64,000 nt of DNA. Origin: Clostridia bacterium (GTDB lineage Bacteria > Bacillota > Clostridia > Oscillospirales > CAG-272). Below the pieces are notes generated by a model. It was not told the origin of the DNA. It did no database searches and saw only the letters and a list, made by a program, of their open reading frames with translations. Position numbers and translations under genes: made by a program. The stretch lies in the NCBI GenBank assembly GCA_017482055.1, contig JAFUOH010000017.1, positions 12,067 through 76,066 on the forward strand, written 5' to 3'. Below, piece after piece: positions 6,831 through 64,000 of the stretch. The number at the start of each line of letters is the position of its first letter. Positions within the stretch are counted from its first letter, which is position 1.

Positions 6831-7021
6831 ATTGCTGTCACCATTATTATCGTGTGACAAACGGAGTGTACACGCACCCAATCGTGTGTGCGCCTGCGAT
6901 TTGTTTTGCCATCTCTTTCCGGTCGTCCGATGCCGCATGTCGGAGTATTGGTTCGGGGTGTTTTTTTTCGTAAGGCGTGAAAAAATATATTCATCACAGA
7001 AGGAGCTATCGAAACAAGAAG

Positions 7022-53200: not shown

Positions 53201-53229
53201 TTGACAAACGCCGCCAAATCGGGTATAAT
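53201..53229 (+). promoter_or_regulatory. Consensus sigma-A promoter for the tRNA locus
   Basis: TTGACA-N17-TATAAT; faces a minus-strand TTGCAA-N17-TACAAT (53245-53273) that would drive rsmA. Confidence 0.85.
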
Positions 53230-53288: not shown

Positions 53289-53326
53289 GCTGGAATGGCG
53301 CAGTGGTAGCGCAATTGATTCGTAAT
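53289..53326 (+). pseudogene. 5' half of an interrupted tRNA-Thr(CGT)
   Basis: GCTGGAA-TG-GCGC-AGTGGTA-GCGC-A-ATTGA-TTCGTAA-T: acceptor 5' strand, intact D-arm, anticodon stem 5' strand and loop, then unrelated sequence. Confidence 0.85.
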
Positions 53327-53357
53327 TGTATTACGGATTTTAACAACTAAATAGTAC

Positions 53358-53433
53358 GCTGGTATGGCTCAGTCGGTAGAGCAGCTGATTCGTAATCAGC
53401 AGGTCATCGGTTCGAATCCGATTACCAGCTCCA
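53358..53433 (+). tRNA. tRNA-Thr(CGT), complete with encoded CCA
   Basis: 76-nt cloverleaf; anticodon arm GCTGA-TTCGTAA-TCAGC, T-arm ATCGG-TTCGAAT-CCGAT, acceptor GCTGGTA/TACCAGC-TCCA. Confidence 0.96.
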
Positions 53434-53445
53434 AACCCTTATTTT

Positions 53446-53493
53446 AAGCCACTTTTTGCGGTTTTTACAACTGCAGAAAGGGGCTTGTTTTTT
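53446..53493 (+). terminator. Terminator after tRNA-Thr
   Basis: AAGCCACTTTTTGCGGTT/AACTGCAGAAAGGGGCTT stem followed by GTTTTTT. Confidence 0.75.
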
Positions 53494-53682
53494 ATGTAAT
53501 CAATAGGTCTATAATTTTTCGATTTTCAGCAAAACGTGGAAAAAATATTTTGGGCTGTTTTTTTCGTGATTAGCTGACCATAATTCTGTCCCCATATTAT
53601 ACTTAAAGTAAACTAAATAAAAAACTAGTATAATATGAGTTCTGCAGAAATCGTGTAATCAATGGCGCATATCAAAAATAAT

Positions 53683-53735
53683 CGGTAATTAATTACCGCT
53701 AAACACTTGACGAAATGAAAAAAATATGTTACAAT
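53683..53735 (+). promoter_or_regulatory. Integrase promoter with an upstream perfect 16-bp palindrome (candidate operator)
   Basis: CGGTAATTAATTACCG (53683-53698), then TTGACG-N17-TACAAT with TG (53707-53735). Confidence 0.7.
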
Positions 53736-53813
53736 TCAAGTGCAAGCAAAAAATAATCTCTGCGCAGAGGTGATGCTGATTATAGATATTTTGATAAAGG
53801 AGATTAACTTATT

Positions 53814-54779
53814 ATGAAAAGAAAAATTAAAGACATAGAAGAATGTGGCGTTTCTATCGATAACGCTTTTGACTGTTTTATTACTACCAAGAAGTCGGAG
53901 GGTCGCAGAGATGCTACCATTCGTTCCTATAAAAGCTCTATCAAGGATTTTATGCAGTTCTGTGAGGAAAAAGGCTATACAGACATTTCGGAAATAAACA
54001 AAGACCTTGTTGAAAAGTACAAGATTCATCTTTTGGAAAAGGATATATCCGCAGAAACCCGAAACACATATTTAAGGACACTAAAGGCTTTCACCTCATA
54101 TTTATTTGAAGAAGAAAACCTTACTCCATTTAAGATTAAACTGTTCCAAGCACCAGTAAAGCACGAAGTTTCGGTTTATTCGGATGAAGAGATTAAGAAA
54201 CTCTTGAACTGCCGATACAAAACTTCCAAATCATTCAGCGAAGTAAGGGACTATTATTCAATGATTACGCTCTTACTCACTGGTATAAGGCGTAGCACAC
54301 TTGTTAATATGTTAATTGAAGATGTAAGGTTTGATACAGATATTTTGATTCTCCGACACATCAAACGAAATAATGTATTCGTGATTCAGCAAATCCCACT
54401 CAACCCCGATTTGAAAGTTGCTTTGAAAAAATACTTGAAGCGTACTCGTCTTGTAGAACAGGGTGTGAAATACCTTTTCCCCAATGTTGAGGGCAAGATG
54501 CTTCACCCAGACACAGTTTCAAAAAACATGTATACCATTTGTGAGGCGGCGGGAGTTAAACCTAGAGCGTGTCACGAATACAGACGAACATTCGCAACAA
54601 AGTCATATAAAACCCTCGAAGATACCGAGAAAACAAGAAAGCTTATGGTAATTAGCGACCCTCGTGTATTGAATCGTTATATAAATGAAGATATGGGTAT
54701 GCTGAAAGAAAGTGCCGAACAGCTCAATTTTGTCACGCAGATTTTAGCACCTCGCCCATTAGTCAGCAGTATAAGCTAA
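53814..54779 (+). CDS. Tyrosine recombinase/integrase
   Basis: SAM-like N-terminal domain (ATIRSY, ETRNTYLRTLKAF), TGIR, YLFP, HEYRR (HxxR), C-terminal NRY. Confidence 0.9.
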   Translation: MKRKIKDIEECGVSIDNAFDCFITTKKSEGRRDATIRSYKSSIKDFMQFCEEKGYTDISEINKDLVEKYKIHLLEKDISAETRNTYLRTLKAFTSYLFEEENLTPFKIKLFQAPVKHEVSVYSDEEIKKLLNCRYKTSKSFSEVRDYYSMITLLLTGIRRSTLVNMLIEDVRFDTDILILRHIKRNNVFVIQQIPLNPDLKVALKKYLKRTRLVEQGVKYLFPNVEGKMLHPDTVSKNMYTICEAAGVKPRACHEYRRTFATKSYKTLEDTEKTRKLMVISDPRVLNRYINEDMGMLKESAEQLNFVTQILAPRPLVSSIS

Positions 54780-54791
54780 GGAGATGAAACA

Positions 54792-55163
54792 ATGGACAAA
54801 AACAAAATGCAAGAGAACAGAGAGCGTTTGAACGCTCTTTGTTCCCCGAAAACAGCCGAGCAATTCAGAGAGAAGAACACAAGTCTTGTGTATTCTCAAT
54901 CCGCAACCTGTCGGGATAGCGTTTATAACGCTGCAGATAAAGACTTTTTAGAGTATCGAAAAAAAGAGCTCGGTATTACTAACAGTGATATACTTATGGC
55001 ATTCTACAATCTTCTGGGGCGTGTTATTACAGATGCAACTCTTCGCAGAAAGATGTCTGGAAAATCGGACTTCACAGCGAGTGAAATTCTGGCACTGGCG
55101 TTGATTTTAGAAATGTCGCCCGATGAGGTATTACACTGTTTCCACCTTTTTCCCAAGATGTAA
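54792..55163 (+). CDS. Cro/XRE-like HTH protein (possible repressor or directionality factor)
   Basis: KELGIT..ATLRRKMSGKSDFTASEI..ILEMSPDE; AAGGAG RBS; starts 13 bp after the integrase gene. Confidence 0.7.
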   Translation: MDKNKMQENRERLNALCSPKTAEQFREKNTSLVYSQSATCRDSVYNAADKDFLEYRKKELGITNSDILMAFYNLLGRVITDATLRRKMSGKSDFTASEILALALILEMSPDEVLHCFHLFPKM

Positions 55164-55164
55164 C

Positions 55165-55198
55165 GCAAAGAGCATCGGCGATCGCCGGTGCTCTTTGC
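55165..55198. terminator. Near-perfect palindrome between convergent genes
   Basis: GCAAAGAGCATCGGCGATCGCCGGTGCTCTTTGC. Confidence 0.7.
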
Positions 55199-55257
55199 TG
55201 TCTTACAAAACAAATACCACGGTGTATTCTTGAAATTTAGAGAATATCATCAAGCTC

Positions 55258-55785
55258 TCAGGTTATAGTCCACACAGATTTTCTGACCAGTCGGGTACTA
55301 ATCAAGCAGCCGTATGTGGTAAAAATGAAGATATTCAGCTTGCGAAGCCTCAACACCTCATTGATTAAGACCTCGCGCCCATATAACTCGGAAAGGTATT
55401 CTCGAAGGGAATCATCCGAATCAATACCCTCGACCAGCTCCCATTTCGGGAGCTGGTTACTAATAATGTCTTCTGCTGCCTTTACATCTTGGCTACACTC
55501 GCATTCCATAAGGGCGCAGAATGCTTTTTCCTGATTGTCGGTCAGGCTGTTAATTGCCTTAGCCAGCTCATTCAGGCGCAGCACTTCCAGATAGCTGCTT
55601 ACTGTACCTCGGAAGAATACTGTACTCGCCTCCCTATCCGTAAGGAGGTAGTCAACTGGAGCAGTTCGCATATTCAGTATGTCAAGCATACTCGGCAGCC
55701 TTCTCTCTCCGAAAGGTAGGATAATCCACTTACCTATGTTGCGACCGCTTGTTACAGAAGTCGTTAAAATCAGCTTCATACTCAT
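55258..55785 (-). CDS. ArdA-like antirestriction protein (divergent)
   Basis: GKWIILP, LNELAKAI..FCALME, DSDDSL and C-terminal FTTYGCL resemble the ArdA pattern; adjacent to ardC. Confidence 0.55.
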   Translation of the reverse strand: MSMKLILTTSVTSGRNIGKWIILPFGERRLPSMLDILNMRTAPVDYLLTDREASTVFFRGTVSSYLEVLRLNELAKAINSLTDNQEKAFCALMECECSQDVKAAEDIISNQLPKWELVEGIDSDDSLREYLSELYGREVLINEVLRLRKLNIFIFTTYGCLISTRLVRKSVWTIT

Positions 55786-55797
55786 AATGCGCTCCTT

Positions 55798-56691
55798 TCA
55801 TTCTGTTACTTTGCGCCCTAAAATGTAGTCAACAGCTTTGCTTGCCGCACTTGCCGCCGTCACTATCATTCGGACATCATCTTTAAGAGCCTTAAGCCAG
55901 CCACGCATATAAGCTATGCTGTTGTCTGCCACATCGGTGCTGTCAATGCCAAGCTCTGCGAAAAGGAAATTTTGCCCCATATCCGCTATGAGTTCTTCAC
56001 GGCTGTAACTCTCGTCACCGAAATGAGCGGTCTGTTTTATTCGGTTCAATCGGTGCTTAGCTCCTGTGCTGTGAACGCTCTCGTGTGCGGCGGTGGCAAA
56101 GAACCTTGCATACGTTGGGAACAGCTCTCGCCTCGGCAGACTTATGAGGTCTAAAGTGGGCGAGTAGTATGCTGCTTGTCCATCGTTGTACTCGAGGGTC
56201 AAGCCTTCCTCGCGCTCGATGTAGTCCATCAGGATTTGCTCGGCAGCCTCGATGGGGGTATGCTCAAAGGTCTGCTCGTCTTCGAGTGGCGGCAGATTCT
56301 CGACATCAAGACTGTCGTAGACGTTGTAGTATCGCAGAAAGGGTATGTCTACCTCCTTCTGCTCTACCTGACCGTCCTTGCCGACAACGTCCTTGACTCC
56401 CTTCTTGAACGAGAAGAAAACGACGATTTGAGCCTTGCTGCCCTTTTTGAGCCTGATTTCTGGATTTTGCTTCTGCAGGTCGCATAGCTGATTCCACGTC
56501 AGGTAAGAATGACCGAACTCCAATAAGTAGATATTTATCCCCCTATACGGAATTCGGGTCTTGTAGTTTCGAGGGGTCTGACTTGCGACCCAAGGTTTGT
56601 GCCACGGAAGCTCAGTACCGCTTGCGATTGCCTCCTCAATGCGCTGAACGATTCTGTCCGTCACGATTTCGTAAACTCTGTTTGATGCCAT
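55798..56691 (-). CDS. ardC: ArdC-family ssDNA-binding antirestriction protein with a zincin-like domain
   Basis: YEIVTDRI, LPWHKPW, YRGIN, YLTWNQ, AYYSP, HESVHSTG..RLNR, YSREELIA. Confidence 0.9.
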   Translation of the reverse strand: MASNRVYEIVTDRIVQRIEEAIASGTELPWHKPWVASQTPRNYKTRIPYRGINIYLLEFGHSYLTWNQLCDLQKQNPEIRLKKGSKAQIVVFFSFKKGVKDVVGKDGQVEQKEVDIPFLRYYNVYDSLDVENLPPLEDEQTFEHTPIEAAEQILMDYIEREEGLTLEYNDGQAAYYSPTLDLISLPRRELFPTYARFFATAAHESVHSTGAKHRLNRIKQTAHFGDESYSREELIADMGQNFLFAELGIDSTDVADNSIAYMRGWLKALKDDVRMIVTAASAASKAVDYILGRKVTE

Positions 56692-56821
56692 TGCATTTTT
56701 CCTCCTTGCTCTTTGAGCTTCATTATCCTTTTTGTGATACTATACGATAAGCGACAGCATACAGAAATATCTAAAAAATCGGGCGTATATGCAAAAAAAG
56801 ACGAGCGCAAGGCTCGTCGTA

Positions 56822-57880
56822 TCAAAAGGGGTTGTTGACTGCTATGTGACACAGCATTTCGTTCCAGTCCTTAACATAACCGTTTTCAGCACTGTATGTG
56901 GTAAGAATAGGCTTGTGGTCAATAATATCTCGCTGCATATTGTAGCGTATATACTTGTCGGTGGCATTTATGCCGACATAATCATTATCCAGGCATAAGT
57001 GTATATGCTCAATCTCCTTGTGCTCATATAGTACCTTATCCAGAAAGACAGTTCCGACTCCGTTTAAGGTGATGAAGCAGCTGTGCTCTGGTGAGCGTTC
57101 GACTTCCCTGCGCTTAACAAGAGTAAGAAAGCTCATAAGGTCAACACAGCTCTCGAAAACGTAAACGTCGGAGTAAGAGCCGCCAGCTGACTTTGGAGCA
57201 TAGAAAAAGGCTGTGTGCAGCTCTTTGACAAGGTTTTGCTTAAAAGGCTTCAAAGGGTTCGTGCCTTTCTTCGTAATAGCAATTACATCATCACCACGGT
57301 AGGTCAGGAAACAAAGATTGTTCTTACCATCGAGAGCTATAAGGCGGCGTTTGATGAAGTTTGAAACTATATCCCTGTCTATGTGTCTTGTATTGCAGAG
57401 GTAAGCATATACACGTTTCAACGCAAGAGCCTTAATATCTGGAATTGTTGAAACAAGAGAATCCGATGTAAGAATATGATTCAAGTCTACGCCGTTGTCG
57501 TTAATAACTATAACGAGAGCTTTGTACTTTTCCTCTATGTATTGCTCCATATCATATTTACTGACCTTGTAAACAAAGTAATTGCAGACATAAAAGGCTT
57601 GTCCGAATGAAAGATTGTAATAAGCCATAAGAGCGTTGAGAGGATTGAAAGTCTCTCCCGTGTAGTGATTGTAAATCATATCGTCGTATACTACGCAGTG
57701 CTTGTTATCTGCAAGGAGGAATTGTCTGTTCTCATAGACTATTTTGCTTTCATCCCACCATATAAGCAGTTGTATCAGATTTGCGGTATTTGCTTTATCT
57801 ACCATCATAGGGGTTATGTGCTTATGCTTGAAGCGGTTATCCAGTACTAGACGTTTAATTTTGTTTAGTGGCTTACTCAT
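56822..57880 (-). CDS. DUF3991/Toprim primase-like protein
   Basis: YAYLCNTRHID, YVFESCVDLMSF, LCLDNDYVG, KDWNE. Confidence 0.78.
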   Translation of the reverse strand: MSKPLNKIKRLVLDNRFKHKHITPMMVDKANTANLIQLLIWWDESKIVYENRQFLLADNKHCVVYDDMIYNHYTGETFNPLNALMAYYNLSFGQAFYVCNYFVYKVSKYDMEQYIEEKYKALVIVINDNGVDLNHILTSDSLVSTIPDIKALALKRVYAYLCNTRHIDRDIVSNFIKRRLIALDGKNNLCFLTYRGDDVIAITKKGTNPLKPFKQNLVKELHTAFFYAPKSAGGSYSDVYVFESCVDLMSFLTLVKRREVERSPEHSCFITLNGVGTVFLDKVLYEHKEIEHIHLCLDNDYVGINATDKYIRYNMQRDIIDHKPILTTYSAENGYVKDWNEMLCHIAVNNPF

Positions 57881-58149
57881 TGTTGTAAGTCTCCTTTCGT
57901 TTTATTTTTTTTAGTTCGAAGCTAAACAATCGGTACGATTGCTGCCGTCAGCGTAAGCTGATGTGATGTATTCACACACAGCTGAATATACCTATAATTG
58001 CTCGTTAATAAGGTACGCTTTTGGGGGTGCAAAAAATAATTTATTCTTGCTCTATACCCATATCAAAACTGTTCGATCGCCCGGGTGGGCGATTCGAACA
58101 GAATAGCCAGACGGAGACCGCCTGGCTGAAATAATGTATGGAAAAAGAT

Positions 58150-58443
58150 TTAGGCTTCGCTGTTTGCTTCCACTTCTTCTTCATAGGCTTCGATTGCTTC
58201 AACGAGAATCTTTGCCTGCAAAGCGGATGACAGCTTCACCAAGGGGAAGTACGCTTGTTTATGTGTCTTGGTAGACGTGTACTCGGTACAAGGATAAAAG
58301 AGCTTGTAGCTCTTTGCCTTTTCTGCATAGACCAACTTGCAGTTGTTGATTTCTATTTCATCATTGATACAAATGGTCATCGTGGCTACCAAGGACTTGA
58401 TGTTAACGTGTTTAAGATTTTTTACTTCAATGTAGTATTTCAT
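58150..58443 (-). CDS. SpoVG-like nucleic-acid-binding protein
   Basis: VATMTICINDEIEINNCKLV...FYP...YFPLV...LQAKILVEAIEAY follows the SpoVG beta-beta-beta-helix pattern; AAGGAG RBS. Confidence 0.6.
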   Translation of the reverse strand: MKYYIEVKNLKHVNIKSLVATMTICINDEIEINNCKLVYAEKAKSYKLFYPCTEYTSTKTHKQAYFPLVKLSSALQAKILVEAIEAYEEEVEANSEA

Positions 58444-58663
58444 TTTGAAACGCTCCTTTTCATTTATTTTTTTATACTATATCTTACTGTCGGGAATCCC
58501 GAATAATAAATAAAAAGTGTCGAACCCCGACGGCAAATGTGTTTGAGCAAAGAAGATGCACCCTTGCGGGTGCGTGTTCCGACCATTTTGTTTCTTACCA
58601 GTTAATTTCTTGCCCTTGTATTTGTTTGGATGGAGGATAATGAATGGCTCTACAGAGCCAAAC

Positions 58664-58798
58664 TCATATCGGAGGATTTTCCATATCCCCATATTCCTGC
58701 TCCATCAGCTCGACCCATTCGTTAAATGACTTCTCTAAGTATTCCTCGTCGAAGATTTCTTCTAACGCTTTGAGGTCTTCGGCACTCAATGTGAACAT
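58664..58798 (-). CDS. Unannotated 44-aa highly acidic protein
   Basis: GGAGGT RBS 7 nt before ATG; MFTLSAEDLKALEEIFDEEYLEKSFNEWVELMEQEYGDMENPPI*. Confidence 0.65.
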   Translation of the reverse strand: MFTLSAEDLKALEEIFDEEYLEKSFNEWVELMEQEYGDMENPPI

Positions 58799-58870
58799 CT
58801 CTATTACCTCCGATACGTCGTTATACTATATAGTAGTATTTTCTTCCGAGAAAAACCAATAAAAAGTGTC

Positions 58871-59239
58871 TTACCCCTCGTTTTTTATCTTTTGAAGCCA
58901 GAAAAGGTCAAAAGAGGACGTAAAACACAGCATAGCAAGCGGTTGGGTATCATCCTTACCGATTGCCTTGGCATACAGAGTCATCAGCTGGTAATAGACC
59001 TCCTGGTAATAAAGCAGCCTTGGGGAACAGTTCTCGAGAATGAAGATAGCCGACATCTTGCGGTGAACGTCCTCGGCTGTCTTTAAGAGCTTGTCTGCGT
59101 TCTGCTGGCAATAGCTTGGGTCGATACACTCTACGATAAAATCTGCTACCTCGTTAAGGTAATCTATATCTACCTCTGTTGGGCTGTAATGTGTTTCAAA
59201 ATATCTGTCGATTCGGTCTGCTTCTCTTTTAGTTAGCAT
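58871..59239 (-). CDS. Hypothetical protein (122 aa)
   Basis: AAGGAG RBS; same orientation as its neighbours; no recognised motif. Confidence 0.65.
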   Translation of the reverse strand: MLTKREADRIDRYFETHYSPTEVDIDYLNEVADFIVECIDPSYCQQNADKLLKTAEDVHRKMSAIFILENCSPRLLYYQEVYYQLMTLYAKAIGKDDTQPLAMLCFTSSFDLFWLQKIKNEG

Positions 59240-59341
59240 AGTAATTCTCCTTTCGTGAAAAATGGTGCTGCACCCGAGTACATCAAGCGCAGCACTTTGA
59301 AGTATGGGAAGCTGTATGTCCTTTTACAGCTCGTACACGCC

Positions 59342-60589
59342 CTAAATGACCTGCACTCTGTATGGCGGCATAAGACCTCTACCGTCAGCTCCCACAAGGA
59401 AGGGGAGCGCAACGCTACTTTTCTTCAATATGTTATATACTGCGTTCTGGTCTGCATTGATTTTGATTCCGTTCTCGCTCATATACATACCTCGGTGTAT
59501 TCGCTTACCCGAGAACTCGTGCCTTGCACCAGTGACGTGCTCGGGCAAGGGGTCGTTATCCAGAACACTGGCAAGGCTGGTGTAACACTCGTCCACAAGA
59601 ATCAGCTCTATACCGTGCTTCTTGCACTTACCTTCAAGAGCTGTCTTGAACCTGGCGAACGGAAAGAGGAAAAAGAGCTGATTGTTCATACCGAGGGAAT
59701 GATTCTCCCCCGAACCGTTGCCCTGGAAGTGTGTACCCCATCCGAGACAGAGCTTACCGATGCCGTGTTCAAGGCAATACCCGATGATATACGCGCTGCT
59801 CTTGCCAGCGAAATCGTTCACCCTATTGTACGTCCTGATTTTCAAGCGGTCGATTCGCTTGGTACGGTTTTTATGGCTGGCACGTCGCAGAACGGATAGA
59901 TACTTGCAATATCCTTGAAGAATGGACTTCAATCCCTTACCGTCAACTATGAAAGTCTCGCCCGTCAAGCTGTCGGCGCAGGTGGCGAAATTCACCATAC
60001 CAAGGTCGATGCCGAGCGCACGTGAGCGGTCAAGCTCTGCGTGGTGTACCGCTTCAACTGGATAGGTAATGATAAGCTCCCAATGGGTCATTTTGTGAAG
60101 CGGACGGACGGTTACCGTCTTAATGTCCTTATCCCTGTAACACTCTGGGATTTTGAGGAATATTTGTGGGGTCAGCCTTGTTGCTGGCAGCATTACGTAT
60201 CCGTCCTCGATGAAGGGCTGCTTTATCTCGATGGCTCTCGGCTCGTCGCGGAGCTTTGGGGGATAGAACTTGTCCAGATTCTTCTCTGTTATCGTTCTGT
60301 CCGACTTATTGAGAACGTACATATCCGTCGAGATATACTTCTTGAAATCCGCGATAGCCGAGCAGATGATGGCATAGTAGAACCCTGTTATATTCCTGTA
60401 TTCCTCGGAGTCCTTGATTAGCTGCTTGAGATTTTTGTAATCCAAAACCTCGCCCTTGTGCTCGTAGGTATCGATTATCTCCTGCATAGCTCGGTTGTAT
60501 AGCTGTCTGCTCATTACCGCGAGCTGCCCCAGATGCTCGGCTTGCTCCCTGGTCAGTGTGCTGAGATTGATTTTTGAACTGCCGTACAT
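59342..60589 (-). CDS. tnpB: TnpB-family RNA-guided endonuclease (rearranged RuvC-II, no Zn finger); no tnpA nearby
   Basis: SRQLYN, LGIDLG (RuvC-I), VDECYTS (displaced Glu), FSGKRIHRGMY, INADQN (RuvC-III); ATG at 60589 after AAGGAG. Confidence 0.88.
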   Translation of the reverse strand: MYGSSKINLSTLTREQAEHLGQLAVMSRQLYNRAMQEIIDTYEHKGEVLDYKNLKQLIKDSEEYRNITGFYYAIICSAIADFKKYISTDMYVLNKSDRTITEKNLDKFYPPKLRDEPRAIEIKQPFIEDGYVMLPATRLTPQIFLKIPECYRDKDIKTVTVRPLHKMTHWELIITYPVEAVHHAELDRSRALGIDLGMVNFATCADSLTGETFIVDGKGLKSILQGYCKYLSVLRRASHKNRTKRIDRLKIRTYNRVNDFAGKSSAYIIGYCLEHGIGKLCLGWGTHFQGNGSGENHSLGMNNQLFFLFPFARFKTALEGKCKKHGIELILVDECYTSLASVLDNDPLPEHVTGARHEFSGKRIHRGMYMSENGIKINADQNAVYNILKKSSVALPFLVGADGRGLMPPYRVQVI

Positions 60590-60661
60590 AGAAATGCTCC
60601 TTTCCTTTTTTATAATACTATAATTAATAATGTAGAAACATTCACAAAAACGGTCGAGGAC

Positions 60662-60690
60662 TTGATTTTTGTGTTGGTATGTGTTATAAT
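60662..60690 (+). promoter_or_regulatory. Sigma-A promoter for the lipoprotein gene
   Basis: TTGATT-N17-TATAAT with TG. Confidence 0.7.
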
Positions 60691-60740
60691 ATGTAAGAAA
60701 TACTATGATAGCTGTCATTTACAGACTGGAGATATATATA

Positions 60741-62459
60741 ATGAAGAAATTTGCTGCTATACTTGCCCTGCTCTTGCTCCTTTGCCTTGCGGCTTGTGAT
60801 GAAACAAATAACGCCGACGTTACAACAAACGCCGACGATACTGTTATTACCGATATTATTACTACTGCCCCCGAGACCGATGGTACAACTGCGCCCGAGA
60901 CTACCTCTGCGCCTGAAACCACAGTAGCTCCCGAGACTACCACTGCTCCCGAGACTACCACTGCTCCCGAGACTACTGCTACTCCTGAGACTACTGCTAC
61001 TCCTGAGACTACTGCTACTCCTGAGACTACTGTAGCACCCGAGACTACCGCTGCTCCCGAGACTACTGCCGAGCCCGAAGTGACCGAGCCGCCTCACGTT
61101 CACGAATACACCGATACCGTAACCGCGCCCACTTGCACAGAGGATGGATATACCAAGCACACCTGTGACATATGCGGTCACAGCTATACCGACAGCGAGA
61201 CCAAGGCGACAGGTCACACTTACACCCAAACCGTAATTCCTCCTACCTGCGACGAAAACGGCTATACTGTTCATACCTGTGCGTGTGGACACAGCTACAA
61301 GGACAACAAGGTGCAGAATCTTACACATCAGCACGTCGAGACCGTTGTTGAACCCACCACCGAAGCAGAGGGATATACTCTGCACACCTGCTCTCTCTGC
61401 GGCTACTCCTTCAAGGACAATTTCACAGAGAAGCTGCACGCTCATAAATATACCGATAAGGTAGTAAAGGCGACCTGCGAAAAGGGTGGCTATACTACCC
61501 ATACCTGCGCGTGCGGATATTCCTACACAGACAGCGAAACCAAAGCAACTGGTCACAAGTATACATCCAAGGTAACTGCGCCCACTTGCACCAAAGACGG
61601 ATATACCACCCATACCTGCACCTGCGGTCATTCCTACACCGACAGTGTGACTAAGGCTACTGGGCACAAGTATACCGACAAGGTAGTAAAGGCTACCTGC
61701 ACAAGCGAAGGCTATACTCTCCATACCTGCCAGTGTGGACACAGCTATACCGACAGCAAGACCAATGCTACTGGACATAGCTATACCTCCAATGTAATTG
61801 CGCCCACAACCACAGCTGAGGGGTATACTATCCACACCTGCCATTGCGGTGACAGTTACAAGGATAACTATGTGCCGAAGCTTCCAACTACGCCTGGACC
61901 TGGTGAGTGGACTAATACTGGTGGTGAAAACGATGGCACCTGGGATGGTCAGTCTGGTCAGAATGCTGGTCAGCTTCCAAGTGGTGAGTTCGTCGAAAAC
62001 AACACGCATAAGCGTCCCGCTTCTTTGAAGGATGGCGGAACTTGGGAAGAGTTCGATAGATATATCTACGAGACCTATAATTTGCGTTACTTCAATAATG
62101 GTATTGGCAAAACCATTGAAGGAATGCAGGGTACTGGTCAGAATGCTATTGCAACTCGTGACATTGAAGCTAACTCTATTCGCATTTATCAGTGGAGAAA
62201 GAGCTATGCGTCTGATGTCTCTACCAACAAAATGCTGAACGTTGTGCTCGAGACTTTCCTATTCATGACTGGAGATAAGGACGTCGCATATGCTCTCTTC
62301 TCGTGGAAGGATGCTGCTGAAATCAACAATGGAGCAGACTCTAATGACTTCGGTTTTAGAGATGTTAGACAAACATCTAATGGTTGGGTCATTGAAATGA
62401 ATGGTATTCAAATCGAAGTTGAATTCGGTAATGGGGAAACTATTTACTATTTCAACTAA
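60741..62459 (+). CDS. Surface lipoprotein: PET-rich stalk, 7 His/Cys repeats and an unknown C-terminal domain
   Basis: Lipobox LAAC; about 10 contiguous (A/T)PETTx hexapeptides; seven ~37-aa HxYxxxVxxxTCxxxGYTxHTCxCGxSY units. Confidence 0.85.
   Translation: MKKFAAILALLLLLCLAACDETNNADVTTNADDTVITDIITTAPETDGTTAPETTSAPETTVAPETTTAPETTTAPETTATPETTATPETTATPETTVAPETTAAPETTAEPEVTEPPHVHEYTDTVTAPTCTEDGYTKHTCDICGHSYTDSETKATGHTYTQTVIPPTCDENGYTVHTCACGHSYKDNKVQNLTHQHVETVVEPTTEAEGYTLHTCSLCGYSFKDNFTEKLHAHKYTDKVVKATCEKGGYTTHTCACGYSYTDSETKATGHKYTSKVTAPTCTKDGYTTHTCTCGHSYTDSVTKATGHKYTDKVVKATCTSEGYTLHTCQCGHSYTDSKTNATGHSYTSNVIAPTTTAEGYTIHTCHCGDSYKDNYVPKLPTTPGPGEWTNTGGENDGTWDGQSGQNAGQLPSGEFVENNTHKRPASLKDGGTWEEFDRYIYETYNLRYFNNGIGKTIEGMQGTGQNAIATRDIEANSIRIYQWRKSYASDVSTNKMLNVVLETFLFMTGDKDVAYALFSWKDAAEINNGADSNDFGFRDVRQTSNGWVIEMNGIQIEVEFGNGETIYYFN
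60891..61070 (+). repeat. 18-bp coding tandem repeat (~10 copies)
   Basis: (G/A)CTCC(C/T)GAGACTAC(C/T)NNN units. Confidence 0.9.
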
Positions 62460-62699
62460 TGTTCACAACAAATCGTAAACAATTACACTAAAGAAAATAC
62501 AGTTCGATTGGCAGAATCGAACGGGAATAACAAAAGATAGGAATTACAAAATGCAGCTGAGTTGCCTCATATTCTTAGTTGCAACTAAGGATCCGGCGTT
62601 TTTTGCGGTCAATCTTTAGTACCCTTGGCACATAACCTACTCCTTATGCTTCCTTCTGTTACCGATACAAAAGTGTAGAGCAGCAGAGGTTGCTCTTTA

Positions 62700-62815
62700 T
62701 AGAAGAATACCCCTCAGTCGATGTTGACTGAGGGGTATCTTGTTAGGGAAGACTTAACATCCGTTTTCCGACCAGAGCGTTTCCTGCCACGTTTTTTGCG
62801 CCCTTTTCGGGCGAT
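62700..62815 (-). ncRNA. Candidate ~110-nt small RNA
   Basis: Upstream TGaTAGAAT/TATAGT -10-like elements, a 5' hairpin CGCCC-GAAAA-GGGCG, and a strong 3' hairpin ATACCCCTCAGTC/GACTGAGGGGTAT followed by UCUUCU; no ORF. Confidence 0.4.
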
Positions 62816-62865
62816 TACTATATTCTATCAAAACGCCCTTCGGGATATTCCGTCAAGGTGTTCGA

Positions 62866-63816
62866 CTAAAGCAGATTTGCTGGGTCTACGTTCGAGAAGA
62901 TGTATCTCGACGTGTCGTACCACTTGAATGTGACTGCTCTGCGCACATCGTCTTCGGTCAGGTACTCTGGGTACTGAGCCATAGCTTTGCACACCTTGTT
63001 CTCGAAGTCTGGGTTCGCAGAGTAATGCGAGTGGATTGTGAAGATGGCTTCTGCGTTGTTTTGCAGAGTGTCCTCGATTACGCGCTTGGCTTCTATAAGG
63101 TTGTTCACAAAATACTCGGTTCGCCAGGTTCTTGCAAAATAAACATCAACCAGTGCTATCAGTCGTTCGCTGCCGTACTCGTTTCGCCTGAGAACCACGT
63201 TATTGAGATATATGTTTTTCTGCGAAACGGTGAACAGGTCTGGCTCTTTCGTAAGCTCCAGCTTATTGCCGCCAGCATAGGTACGGCTTGAATCTCTGCG
63301 CTTCTCCATTCGTTTCAGCTGGTATGTCAGTCCGTCGGTGCTGAATCCTCTGGCAAGAAAGGTTTCGTATAGTTTATTGAGCTGCCTTATGTGCGGCTCT
63401 CCTGTCGGCATATAGTATTGAAGCGAACCTCTTTCCATATCCTTGCGCATTGCCTTGGCTGGGTTCTCCTTTGCATAGTAGCCTTGGCTGAGATAGTTTT
63501 CAAACACCAATGCCGACAGCTTGATACGGATTGCGTTTATCTCATTCGGGCAGGTAATGCCGAAATAGTTGAGGGTACATAGGGTCACTTCAAGAATATT
63601 GTTAGCCGTGATGCGACGTTTGCGGAAGATTCTGGCTTCGATTAGGTCTTCCACCAGAATGGTGTTTGTATGGGTGTCGCTCTTATTATTGTTGAGCAGA
63701 CGGCACATCTGGCTCTGCGCCACACAGCCGCCAACTCGGACTACGCACCATAACAAGTCTTCATACTTATGAAGGAAGTAGTCTTGTATGACCTTTTCCT
63801 TTTCGCTCAGCATCAT
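62866..63816 (-). CDS. Hypothetical protein (316 aa), possible N-terminal winged helix
   Basis: GGGGTG RBS; directly downstream of the partial CDS at the window end; no recognised family. Confidence 0.7.
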   Translation of the reverse strand: MMLSEKEKVIQDYFLHKYEDLLWCVVRVGGCVAQSQMCRLLNNNKSDTHTNTILVEDLIEARIFRKRRITANNILEVTLCTLNYFGITCPNEINAIRIKLSALVFENYLSQGYYAKENPAKAMRKDMERGSLQYYMPTGEPHIRQLNKLYETFLARGFSTDGLTYQLKRMEKRRDSSRTYAGGNKLELTKEPDLFTVSQKNIYLNNVVLRRNEYGSERLIALVDVYFARTWRTEYFVNNLIEAKRVIEDTLQNNAEAIFTIHSHYSANPDFENKVCKAMAQYPEYLTEDDVRRAVTFKWYDTSRYIFSNVDPANLL

Positions 63817-63831
63817 AGCGCATCACCCCTT

Positions 63832-64000
63832 TTATTGACGGACAAATTCAAGGTGAGTGCCAAGAATTTCGGCAGCCGCCTCTTTAGCTTCGATTTGGTC
63901 TGTTCCGTAGTGGCTGTTGATGATTTCCACGCAAATCAGCTCTCCGCTCTCGGCGCGGTAAGCTCCGTCTGGCAAGCTGATTTCTCCGCGCTCCAATTTG
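63832..64000 (-). CDS. C-terminus of a putative PD-(D/E)xK-fold (replication-relaxation-like) protein, partial
   Basis: Manual translation: KLERGEISLPDGAYRAESGELICVEIINSHYGTDQIEAKEAAAEILGTHLEFVRQ* (PDG..VE..Y..K pattern). Confidence 0.5.
   Translation of the reverse strand, partial: KLERGEISLPDGAYRAESGELICVEIINSHYGTDQIEAKEAAAEILGTHLEFVRQ

Follow-up and report, generated by a model that had tools for sequence, protein, structure and literature searches.

How does a bacterium obtain its tRNA-Thr(CGU) when the host gene lies cut in two at the anticodon loop? The question is raised by a stretch of 64,000 nucleotides (the window) on contig JAFUOH010000017.1 of a Clostridia bacterium (GCA_017482055.1; G000:C12:12067-76066 in our numbering, where G000 is the source metagenome-assembled genome (MAG), 54% complete). 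Beside rsmA, this window contains the 5' half of a tRNA gene and, shortly behind it, a complete tRNA-Thr(CGT) with the same anticodon and a different body. The initial annotation explained the arrangement by a cassette of ~174 bp, carrying only a replacement tRNA and a terminator, which interrupts the host gene. Our analysis favours a much larger insert, i.e. an element of 12,868 bp that split the single host tRNA-Thr(CGU) gene and whose own, whole tRNA supplies the function; we assign this explanation a probability of about 85%.

The split gene and the two ends of the island

The displaced host 5' half (53289-53326, + strand) is 38 nt long and forms the host side of the left junction (attL). 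It consists of the acceptor strand, the D arm, one strand of the anticodon stem and the anticodon loop, ends in ATTGA-TTCGTAAT and scores 17.8 bits against the Rfam tRNA model. Its last 12 nucleotides (53315-53326, + strand) are the common core TTGATTCGTAAT, comprising the anticodon loop and part of the 5' stem strand. The core recurs as a direct repeat at positions 13750-13761 of L001, a stretch of the same G000 contig read beyond the window end (window-equivalent 66183-66194). The two copies are 12,868 bp apart, which is the size of the interruption. Behind the right copy lies the true host 3' half, intact, at L001 13762-13798 (window-equivalent 66195-66231, past the window end), located at about 78261-78297 of G000:C12 by a motif search of the whole assembly and by reading of the contig; together with TTGATTCGTAAT it occupies L001 13750-13798 (window-equivalent 66183-66231). 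It comprises the anticodon-stem strand, the variable loop, the T arm, the TTCCAGC acceptor strand and CCA. As a check, the initial annotation had proposed a search of the far island end for TCAATAGGTC, a T arm and TTCCAGC, and exactly those are found. The island body extends from 53327 to 64000 and continues to window-equivalent 66182 (L001 13749), its last ~165 bp being a conserved right arm.

Joined in silico, the G000 halves form a 75-nt tRNA-Thr(CGT) that ARAGORN accepts, with no stem mismatch. The same operation restores an ARAGORN tRNA in all four islands with complete right ends (G000, G048, G050 and L037), without stem mismatch in G000, G048 and L037. Precise excision would consequently free the host, which speaks against the earlier suggestion that the host depends on the insert. 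In the integrated state, ARAGORN detects the element tRNA in L001 and none at attL or at the right junction (attR), in agreement with the earlier view that the gene was not rebuilt: attL reads from the core into a spacer, and the arm at attR has neither acceptor nor D arm. Regeneration of the tRNA at one junction by island sequence, as in classical islands, is not found.

The unsplit state is preserved in other members of the genus. A search of 40 relatives with the stretch of rsmA, promoter and fragment retrieved 19 loci, 17 of which possess one intact tRNA-Thr(CGT) according to ARAGORN, as had been expected of island-free relatives, while the other two are cut by contig ends. Nine of the 17 (L004, L005, L007, L009-L012, L014 and L016) carry a 5' half identical to the 38-nt fragment, confirming it as an intact native 5' half, and their 3' half differs from the far-end half of G000 by one base (AGGCC instead of AGGTC). 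None of the relatives' loci has an upstream tRNA fragment; promoter and leader directly abut the gene. The intact genes of the relatives and the far 3' half together imply that the host gene is split by everything between the repeats, and not by ~174 bp.

The target is a single-copy gene. A search for tRNA-Thr(CGT) anticodon arms in 32 genomes of the host genus yielded exactly one intact arm in 23 genomes, none detected in nine, and two in no genome. The sole intact arm in G000 and in G047 is that of the element. The corresponding codon, ACG, occurs 12.1 times per 1000 codons in long open reading frames (ORFs) and represents about 20% of the Thr codons.

The small cassette of the initial annotation was inferred from GTAAT on both sides of the tRNA unit and from 14 nt at 53496-53509, GTAATCAATAGGTC, which equal the start of the Thr(CGT) 3' half; the segment 53496-53530 would then be the decayed host 3' half. 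The 14 nt are indeed present and coincide with the opening 14 nt of the true 3' half, but they are borne by the element and are not the displaced half: the segment travels with the element into hosts with other anticodon stems, and the intact host 3' half, which rejoins perfectly with the 5' half, lies 12.9 kb away. The supposed decayed T-loop and acceptor at 53510-53530 receive no tRNA-like score with Rfam and are not kept in two of five distinct elements (G049 and L036/L037). A 174-bp insertion into the host gene is thereby refuted by the far 3' half, the intact genes of the relatives and the 12,868-bp spacing of the repeats, and we regard it as having practically no chance of being correct.

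Two tRNA-like 5' parts 69 bp apart might also result from an old local duplication of the tRNA gene with decay of one copy, or from an assembly chimera, the more so as the MAG holds duplicated stretches and listed contigs break at the tRNA. Against this, the relatives have one gene and no fragment, and the fragment is the native allele whereas the whole tRNA is foreign. Furthermore, the same architecture is found in six assemblies from different sources, and a contig of sample X6 contains a junction of a G049-type 5' half, spacer and tRNA. Duplication or chimerism is therefore extremely improbable. L001 944-14100 is covered end to end by contigs of X2, a different sample from the same study; six of the seven listed pieces show 0 differences. 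Diverged copies occur in runs of three further studies.

Some peculiarities of the assembly are recorded here in their own right. A cluster of five tRNAs is duplicated in the MAG (contigs C8:42154-42619 and C22:3360-3825), and identical stretches are also common to the contig pairs C14/C21 and C17/C20, pointing to bin redundancy or strain mixing. The joints listed include one from L001 986 to 13762 (side 24), and a low-depth (3) contig of X2 joins L001 13237 to 1280 with one extra letter; neither is a junction of the empty site (attB) or of the circle (attP). The latter joint could be a circular or tandem variant without the att-tRNA region, or an artefact.

The replacement tRNA and its attachment site

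The promoter of the native tRNA-Thr(CGT), TTGACA-17-TATAAT (53201-53229, + strand), matches the consensus at all 12 scored positions, as initially described (12 being the maximum of our scan). It is kept upstream of the relatives' intact tRNA and faces the element tRNA after integration. The 5' half is followed by an element-borne spacer of 31 nt (53327-53357, + strand) with a conserved ACAACTAAAT block directly before the element tRNA; spacers measure 30-31 nt in all six loci of the family set, i.e. the G000 locus, L024, L025, L026, L036 and L037. The complete element-borne tRNA-Thr(CGT), the replacement gene (53358-53433, + strand), is the only tRNA that ARAGORN detects in the window. It starts 69 bases downstream of the start of the 5' fragment, scores 74.5 bits with Rfam and has 0 stem mismatches. 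Among 400 other genomes of the order its top match reaches 95% and belongs to another family, and no identical native source is found in these 400 genomes. The earlier description of a whole foreign tRNA with the same anticodon under the host promoter thus stands, as does that of its own terminator: the 62-nt trailer (53434-53495, + strand) contains a hairpin (53452-53480) followed by a T run. Trailers are 81-97% identical among the elements and hence more alike than the tRNAs (76-92%).

Between the host promoter and the element tRNA, the scan finds no + strand promoter of at least 9/12, which makes read-through from the host promoter the simplest source of the tRNA. A promoter inside the spacer was considered and rejected, as none reaches 9/12, although a weak one may exist there.

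The following course of events would account for the locus. The 12,868-bp element would have entered the host's single tRNA-Thr(CGU) gene beside rsmA through a crossover inside a core of 11-12 bp (TGATTCGTAAT) formed by the anticodon loop and part of the 5' stem strand. The initial annotation, too, had placed the crossover of a tyrosine integrase in the anticodon loop, and our analysis supports this. The element would bring no matching tRNA half to either junction, leaving the host gene split with its 5' half at attL and its 3' half at attR, and the whole tRNA-Thr(CGU), 31 bp inside attL, would supply the function. Read-through from the host promoter would yield a precursor of 5' fragment, hairpin spacer, tRNA and terminator, probably trimmed by RNase P. 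In the excised circle, transcription from an outward promoter in the right arm would cross attP and enter spacer and tRNA. Such a promoter (TTGAAT-17-TATAAT with TG, L001 13592-13620, ~130 bp before the right core) is present in the conserved arm of all four right ends.

Spacer and core have the capacity to form a hairpin: in the minimum free energy fold, 53330-53339 pair with core positions 53317-53326 over 10 bp. Pairing is seen in 56 of the 60 cells of the six spacer units, compared with 28-42% when the partner is slid. All seven one-sided changes keep the pair via G-U or G-C, only opposite a fixed U or G. This conservation hints at a constraint on the RNA level.

The segment at 53496-53509 (+ strand), here termed S2, reads GTAA(T) followed by TCAATAGGTC. 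Its conservation in all six loci, irrespective of the anticodon stem of the host, assigns it to the element and not to the host 3' half. The right part of S2 (TCAAYAGGTCT) is an inverted repeat of the right-end arm left of the core (GACCTGTTGA), with agreement at 10 of its first 11 positions in each of the three elements G000, G048 and G050. Directly before this part stands GTAA, which ends the loop and provides the last four bases of the overlap. Further GTAATCAAT copies are located in the left arm (53655-53663, + strand; same place in G050) and ~127 bp before the right core in G000, G048 and L037. GTAATCAAY accordingly occurs at fixed places, i.e. after the terminator in six of six loci, ~160 bp further in G000 and G050, and at the above-mentioned right-arm position in the same three elements.

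These copies could be working accessory integrase sites, which would assist in building the recombination complex, would compensate for a missing right half-site and would not be relics. Their fixed places in the elements favour such a role, as does the low genome-wide density even of a looser pattern (0.07 per kb). It is weakened by an integrase that lacks an arm-binding domain and by the copies not being present at every position in every element, and we rate it a little short of an even chance. Another possibility is that attP was once a contiguous palindrome of left half-site GACCTGTTGA, overlap TTCGTAA and right half-site TCAAYAGGTC, into which the unit of spacer, tRNA and trailer was placed later, S2 being the orphaned right half. 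Conceivably, the element integrated at a secondary site adjacent to a tRNA gene and was then excised aberrantly. The agreement between S2 and the reverse complement of the right-end arm, the GTAA directly before S2, the absence of a half-site from the actual right flank of the crossover (4-7 of 20 matches) and the best alignments of spacer against native leader, reaching 18 of 22, all fit this history. However, no relative without the cassette is seen, the similarity between spacer and leader does not exceed that of shuffled sequences in most elements (of 200 shuffles, 8 to 116 score at least as high), and the right-end arm of L037 differs (GCAGTTGA) and matches S2 more poorly (10 of 20). We consider the palindrome a tentative proposal, with the balance somewhat against it. 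It is compatible with the split of the host gene by a 12,868-bp element, and the two interpretations of S2 are not mutually exclusive. Judged by the repeats, the cassette may separate a strong left half-site and the overlap from an inverted-repeat right half-site, so that the notion of a tRNA inside a tRNA-like site may apply to attP and not to the host gene. A derivation of the spacer from the native leader was discarded, its average similarity not being above shuffles, and is kept as a weak lead.

Several observations concern the same region. The variable loop is AGGTC in both split hosts G000 and G048 (L001 13762-13770; reverse complement of L032, about 6928-6936) and AGGCC in nine of nine island-free relatives with the same 5' half, and S2 reads AGGTC; natural variation, target preference or conversion could be the reason. 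In the closest relative, G014 (L003 2266-2380), the intact tRNA by rsmA is followed by ~110 bp of element-type trailer and beyond-S2 sequence without S2, and then by host flank. This stretch looks like the remnant of an element whose 3' part had joined the host gene. Near-identical palindromes, CGGTAATTAATTACCG and CGGTTATTAATTACCG, are located in the left arm (window 53684-53699) and in the right arm (L001 13660-13675), and may be binding sites of a helix-turn-helix (HTH) protein or of a host factor. A promoter-like site (53707-53735, + strand; 10/12 with TG) precedes the integrase gene.

A family of elements with the same layout

Integrases 73-82% identical to that of G000 are encoded at five other loci, from three genome records (one of them also listed as G047) and two metagenome contigs. 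All five loci share one layout: promoter, 5' half ending in the core, spacer of 30-31 nt, whole tRNA-Thr(CGT), 62-nt trailer, S2, ~300 bp of conserved sequence and the integrase gene. Far ends with arm, core and host 3' half are present in G048 (5.7 kb), G050 (6.5 kb) and L037 (11.2 kb). Three loci of the family set have rsmA upstream of the target, and ThiF, MnmA and peptidase M19 take this place in one locus each, i.e. at least four host contexts. L036 and L037 have identical spacer, tRNA and trailer, while their host 5' halves and upstream genes (MnmA and peptidase M19) differ, which is evidence that the unit moves, tRNA included. The elements share a module consisting of the tRNA-bearing att region, the integrase gene and a 123-aa ORF, whereas the cargo varies.

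Within the 32 genomes of the genus the element integrase occurs only in G000 and G047, and none of the 400 other genomes of the order contains a family member at E<=1e-40. The protein database holds 34 integrase clusters at this threshold, with 51-98% identity.

Closely related elements differ in the body of their tRNA, and two element tRNAs are identical to native alleles of other species of the genus. The layout offers a reason for carrying a complete gene. A crossover in the anticodon loop parts both strands of the acceptor stem and of the anticodon stem, and hybrids would therefore be mismatched in most hosts: a host 5' half combined with an element 3' half would have at least one non-pair in five of six host-element pairs (2, 2, 2, 3, 1 and 0), whereas the element tRNAs have no non-pairs in six of six. 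With a whole tRNA on board, the integrase would need to share only the invariant loop with its hosts, across hosts with differing stems.

G050 (L026/L033) possesses two stacked 5' halves, each with its own spacer, before the whole tRNA (L026 2413-2624, equal to L033 about 1030-1280), as expected if an element had entered the tRNA of a resident element. The proposal that the replacement tRNA might resist re-integration is thereby not supported, the element tRNA being a fresh target. Directly to the right of attR at this locus (L033 7550-8511) there is an ORF with an Arm-DNA-bind_4 domain that may belong to a second, classical island at the same tRNA.

A more far-reaching interpretation holds that the tRNA is built into the attachment site of a family of small non-phage elements, between the overlap and an orphaned right half-site, that its promoter switches from the outward one to that of the host on integration, that its body is refreshed by, or swapped with, alleles of the host, and that stacked 5' halves record successive integrations. 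As a whole we regard this combination as speculative and rather unlikely. If true, it would allow one Xer-like integrase to use the invariant loop across hosts with diverged tRNA stems. The acquisition of tRNA halves by site-specific recombination at the core was rejected by reasoning, since no possible pairing places a 5' half of the host after the spacer or a 3' half of the host ahead of the element's trailer. Exchange between element and host tRNAs by gene conversion is a guess.

A number of points weigh against the split of a single host gene by a tRNA-bearing element, or narrow its basis. The attL spacer, L001 893-943, is not spanned by any listed contig piece. Such a gap in cover proves nothing in itself, but the evidence for the G000 junction then comes from the MAG contig and from the matching layout at other loci. 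Nor do the listed joints include an attB or attP junction of the G000 island. The MAG is only 54% complete, and the count of Thr(CGU) genes covers CGT isoacceptor genes only. Transcription from the host promoter, processing of the precursor and use of the outward promoter are all deduced from sequence. The 5' side of the core-spacer hairpin is invariant, which makes two-sided covariation impossible, and no information is gained from the shuffle control. For a simple tyrosine recombinase it is odd that attP has no recognisable half-site to the right of the crossover, where the spacer starts. In G050, finally, the anticodon stem that the outer 5' half would form with the 3' half at attR contains 2 non-pairs, and the integrase gene is frameshifted near residue 222.

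Integrase, known systems and cargo

The integrase gene (53814-54779, + strand) is 380 bp from the split tRNA and encodes a Xer-like tyrosine integrase of 321 aa without arm-binding domain. Its PF00589 match (1.3e-16) covers positions 6-170 of 172, and PF13102, PF02899 and PF13495, with SAM-like N-terminal domains, match in addition; by these profiles the protein is a tyrosine recombinase with a catalytic and an N-terminal SAM-like core-binding domain. It also matches the XerC-like PDB entry 4a8e (1e-09). Scores remain below the NCBIfam equivalog cut-offs for XerA_Arch (101.8 bits vs 220), XerC (84.7 vs 335) and XerD, so that by this criterion the integrase is not a XerC, XerD or XerA chromosome-dimer resolvase.

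No phage structural or lysis family is matched by the 16 island ORFs searched against Pfam or the nine searched against PHROGs, the latter giving a named function only for the integrase and one repressor-like family. The integrase has no match at E<=1e-20 in 50,697 phage records or in plasmid records, and the viral_contigs set is matched neither by the integrase protein nor by a DNA pattern of core and spacer. The G000 element accordingly does not classify as a temperate phage.

The closest known system is the tRNA-dependent lysogeny of actinobacteriophages (Fionnbharth, LeBron, Gaia and others; Guerrero-Bustamante and Hatfull, mBio 2024, PMC10865867). As that paper reports, it was shown experimentally for mycobacteriophages, with a short core, a tRNA that is not rebuilt and an element-borne tRNA of the same isotype. 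The parallels extend to a tyrosine integrase that targets a tRNA gene (here PF00589, with attB overlapping the intact tRNA of the relatives' empty site), a short common core without tRNA rebuilding (8-17 bp in the actinophages as described there, 12 bp here), an element-borne tRNA of the same isotype, found here in all five related loci as well, and a host tRNA in single copy (here in 23 of the 23 genus genomes with a detected arm, out of 32 searched). In contrast, the actinophages are described as temperate phages with lambda-like arm-binding integrases, whereas no phage genes are found among the element proteins scanned and the integrase is Xer-like without arm domain. The actinophage tRNA is reported to lie elsewhere in the genome under its own demonstrated promoter; here it is 31 bp from the crossover and takes over the host promoter. 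Judged by that paper, the features that set the present elements apart also include a conserved outward promoter that would serve the tRNA in the circle, the stacking of 5' halves, tRNA bodies that match host alleles, and variation of the body between close relatives of the element.

The same paper mentions the prophage Lj965 of Lactobacillus johnsonii, which is said not to rebuild the tRNA at the junction and to encode a cognate tRNA; like the G000 element it resides in Firmicutes, unlike it, it is a prophage. Classical genomic islands targeting tRNA or tmRNA genes, as presented in the Islander database paper (PMC4383910), resemble the G000 island in their tyrosine integrase, tRNA target, displaced fragment and direct repeat at the ends, and integrase gene beside attL. 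Inner sequence restores the split gene of classical islands, while neither junction is a tRNA here and both halves are displaced pieces. Judged by titles and abstracts, the papers listed for the term tRNA-dependent lysogeny concern phages and prophages (including PMC12429752), and a search for non-phage cases returned none. Within the literature searched, compensation for a destroyed target tRNA by an element-borne copy is demonstrated for actinobacteriophages only (2024).

The functional scheme is hence already known, and the G000 element is a variant of it without recognisable phage genes. Together with its five relatives, it suggests that in animal-gut Clostridia this solution is also used by small integrative elements that are not phages, which combine it with a Xer-like integrase and a more compact layout. 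The compact design offers a testable reason for the whole tRNA, i.e. the mismatched anticodon-loop hybrids in five of six host-element pairs. In practical terms, software that locates islands by a restored tRNA and a single displaced 3' fragment would put the boundaries of such elements in the wrong place, and tRNA annotation would list the foreign gene as the host's own.

The integrase gene is always adjoined by the 123-aa ORF (54792-55163, + strand; 88-89% identical in G048, G050 and L037), which has weak matches to HTH_26 and to a repressor family; a regulator or excision factor is our guess. On the - strand follow the cargo genes, comprising an ArdC-N and zincin peptidase protein (55798-56691; 49% identical homologue in the L037 island), a DUF3991/Toprim primase-like protein (56822-57880; 45%) and a TnpB-family RNA-guided endonuclease gene (59342-60718; 56%). 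The retention of the last at 56% identity between G000 and L037 marks it as resident cargo and not as a recent insertion sequence hit. Several island ORFs have no family match. The small G048 element encodes a Rep_OBD-helicase protein. G000 and L037 have at least eight genes in common, with the middle block inverted: the cargo block of G000 (window 55798-63816) corresponds to about 11700-20480 of L037 in inverted orientation relative to the integrase gene.

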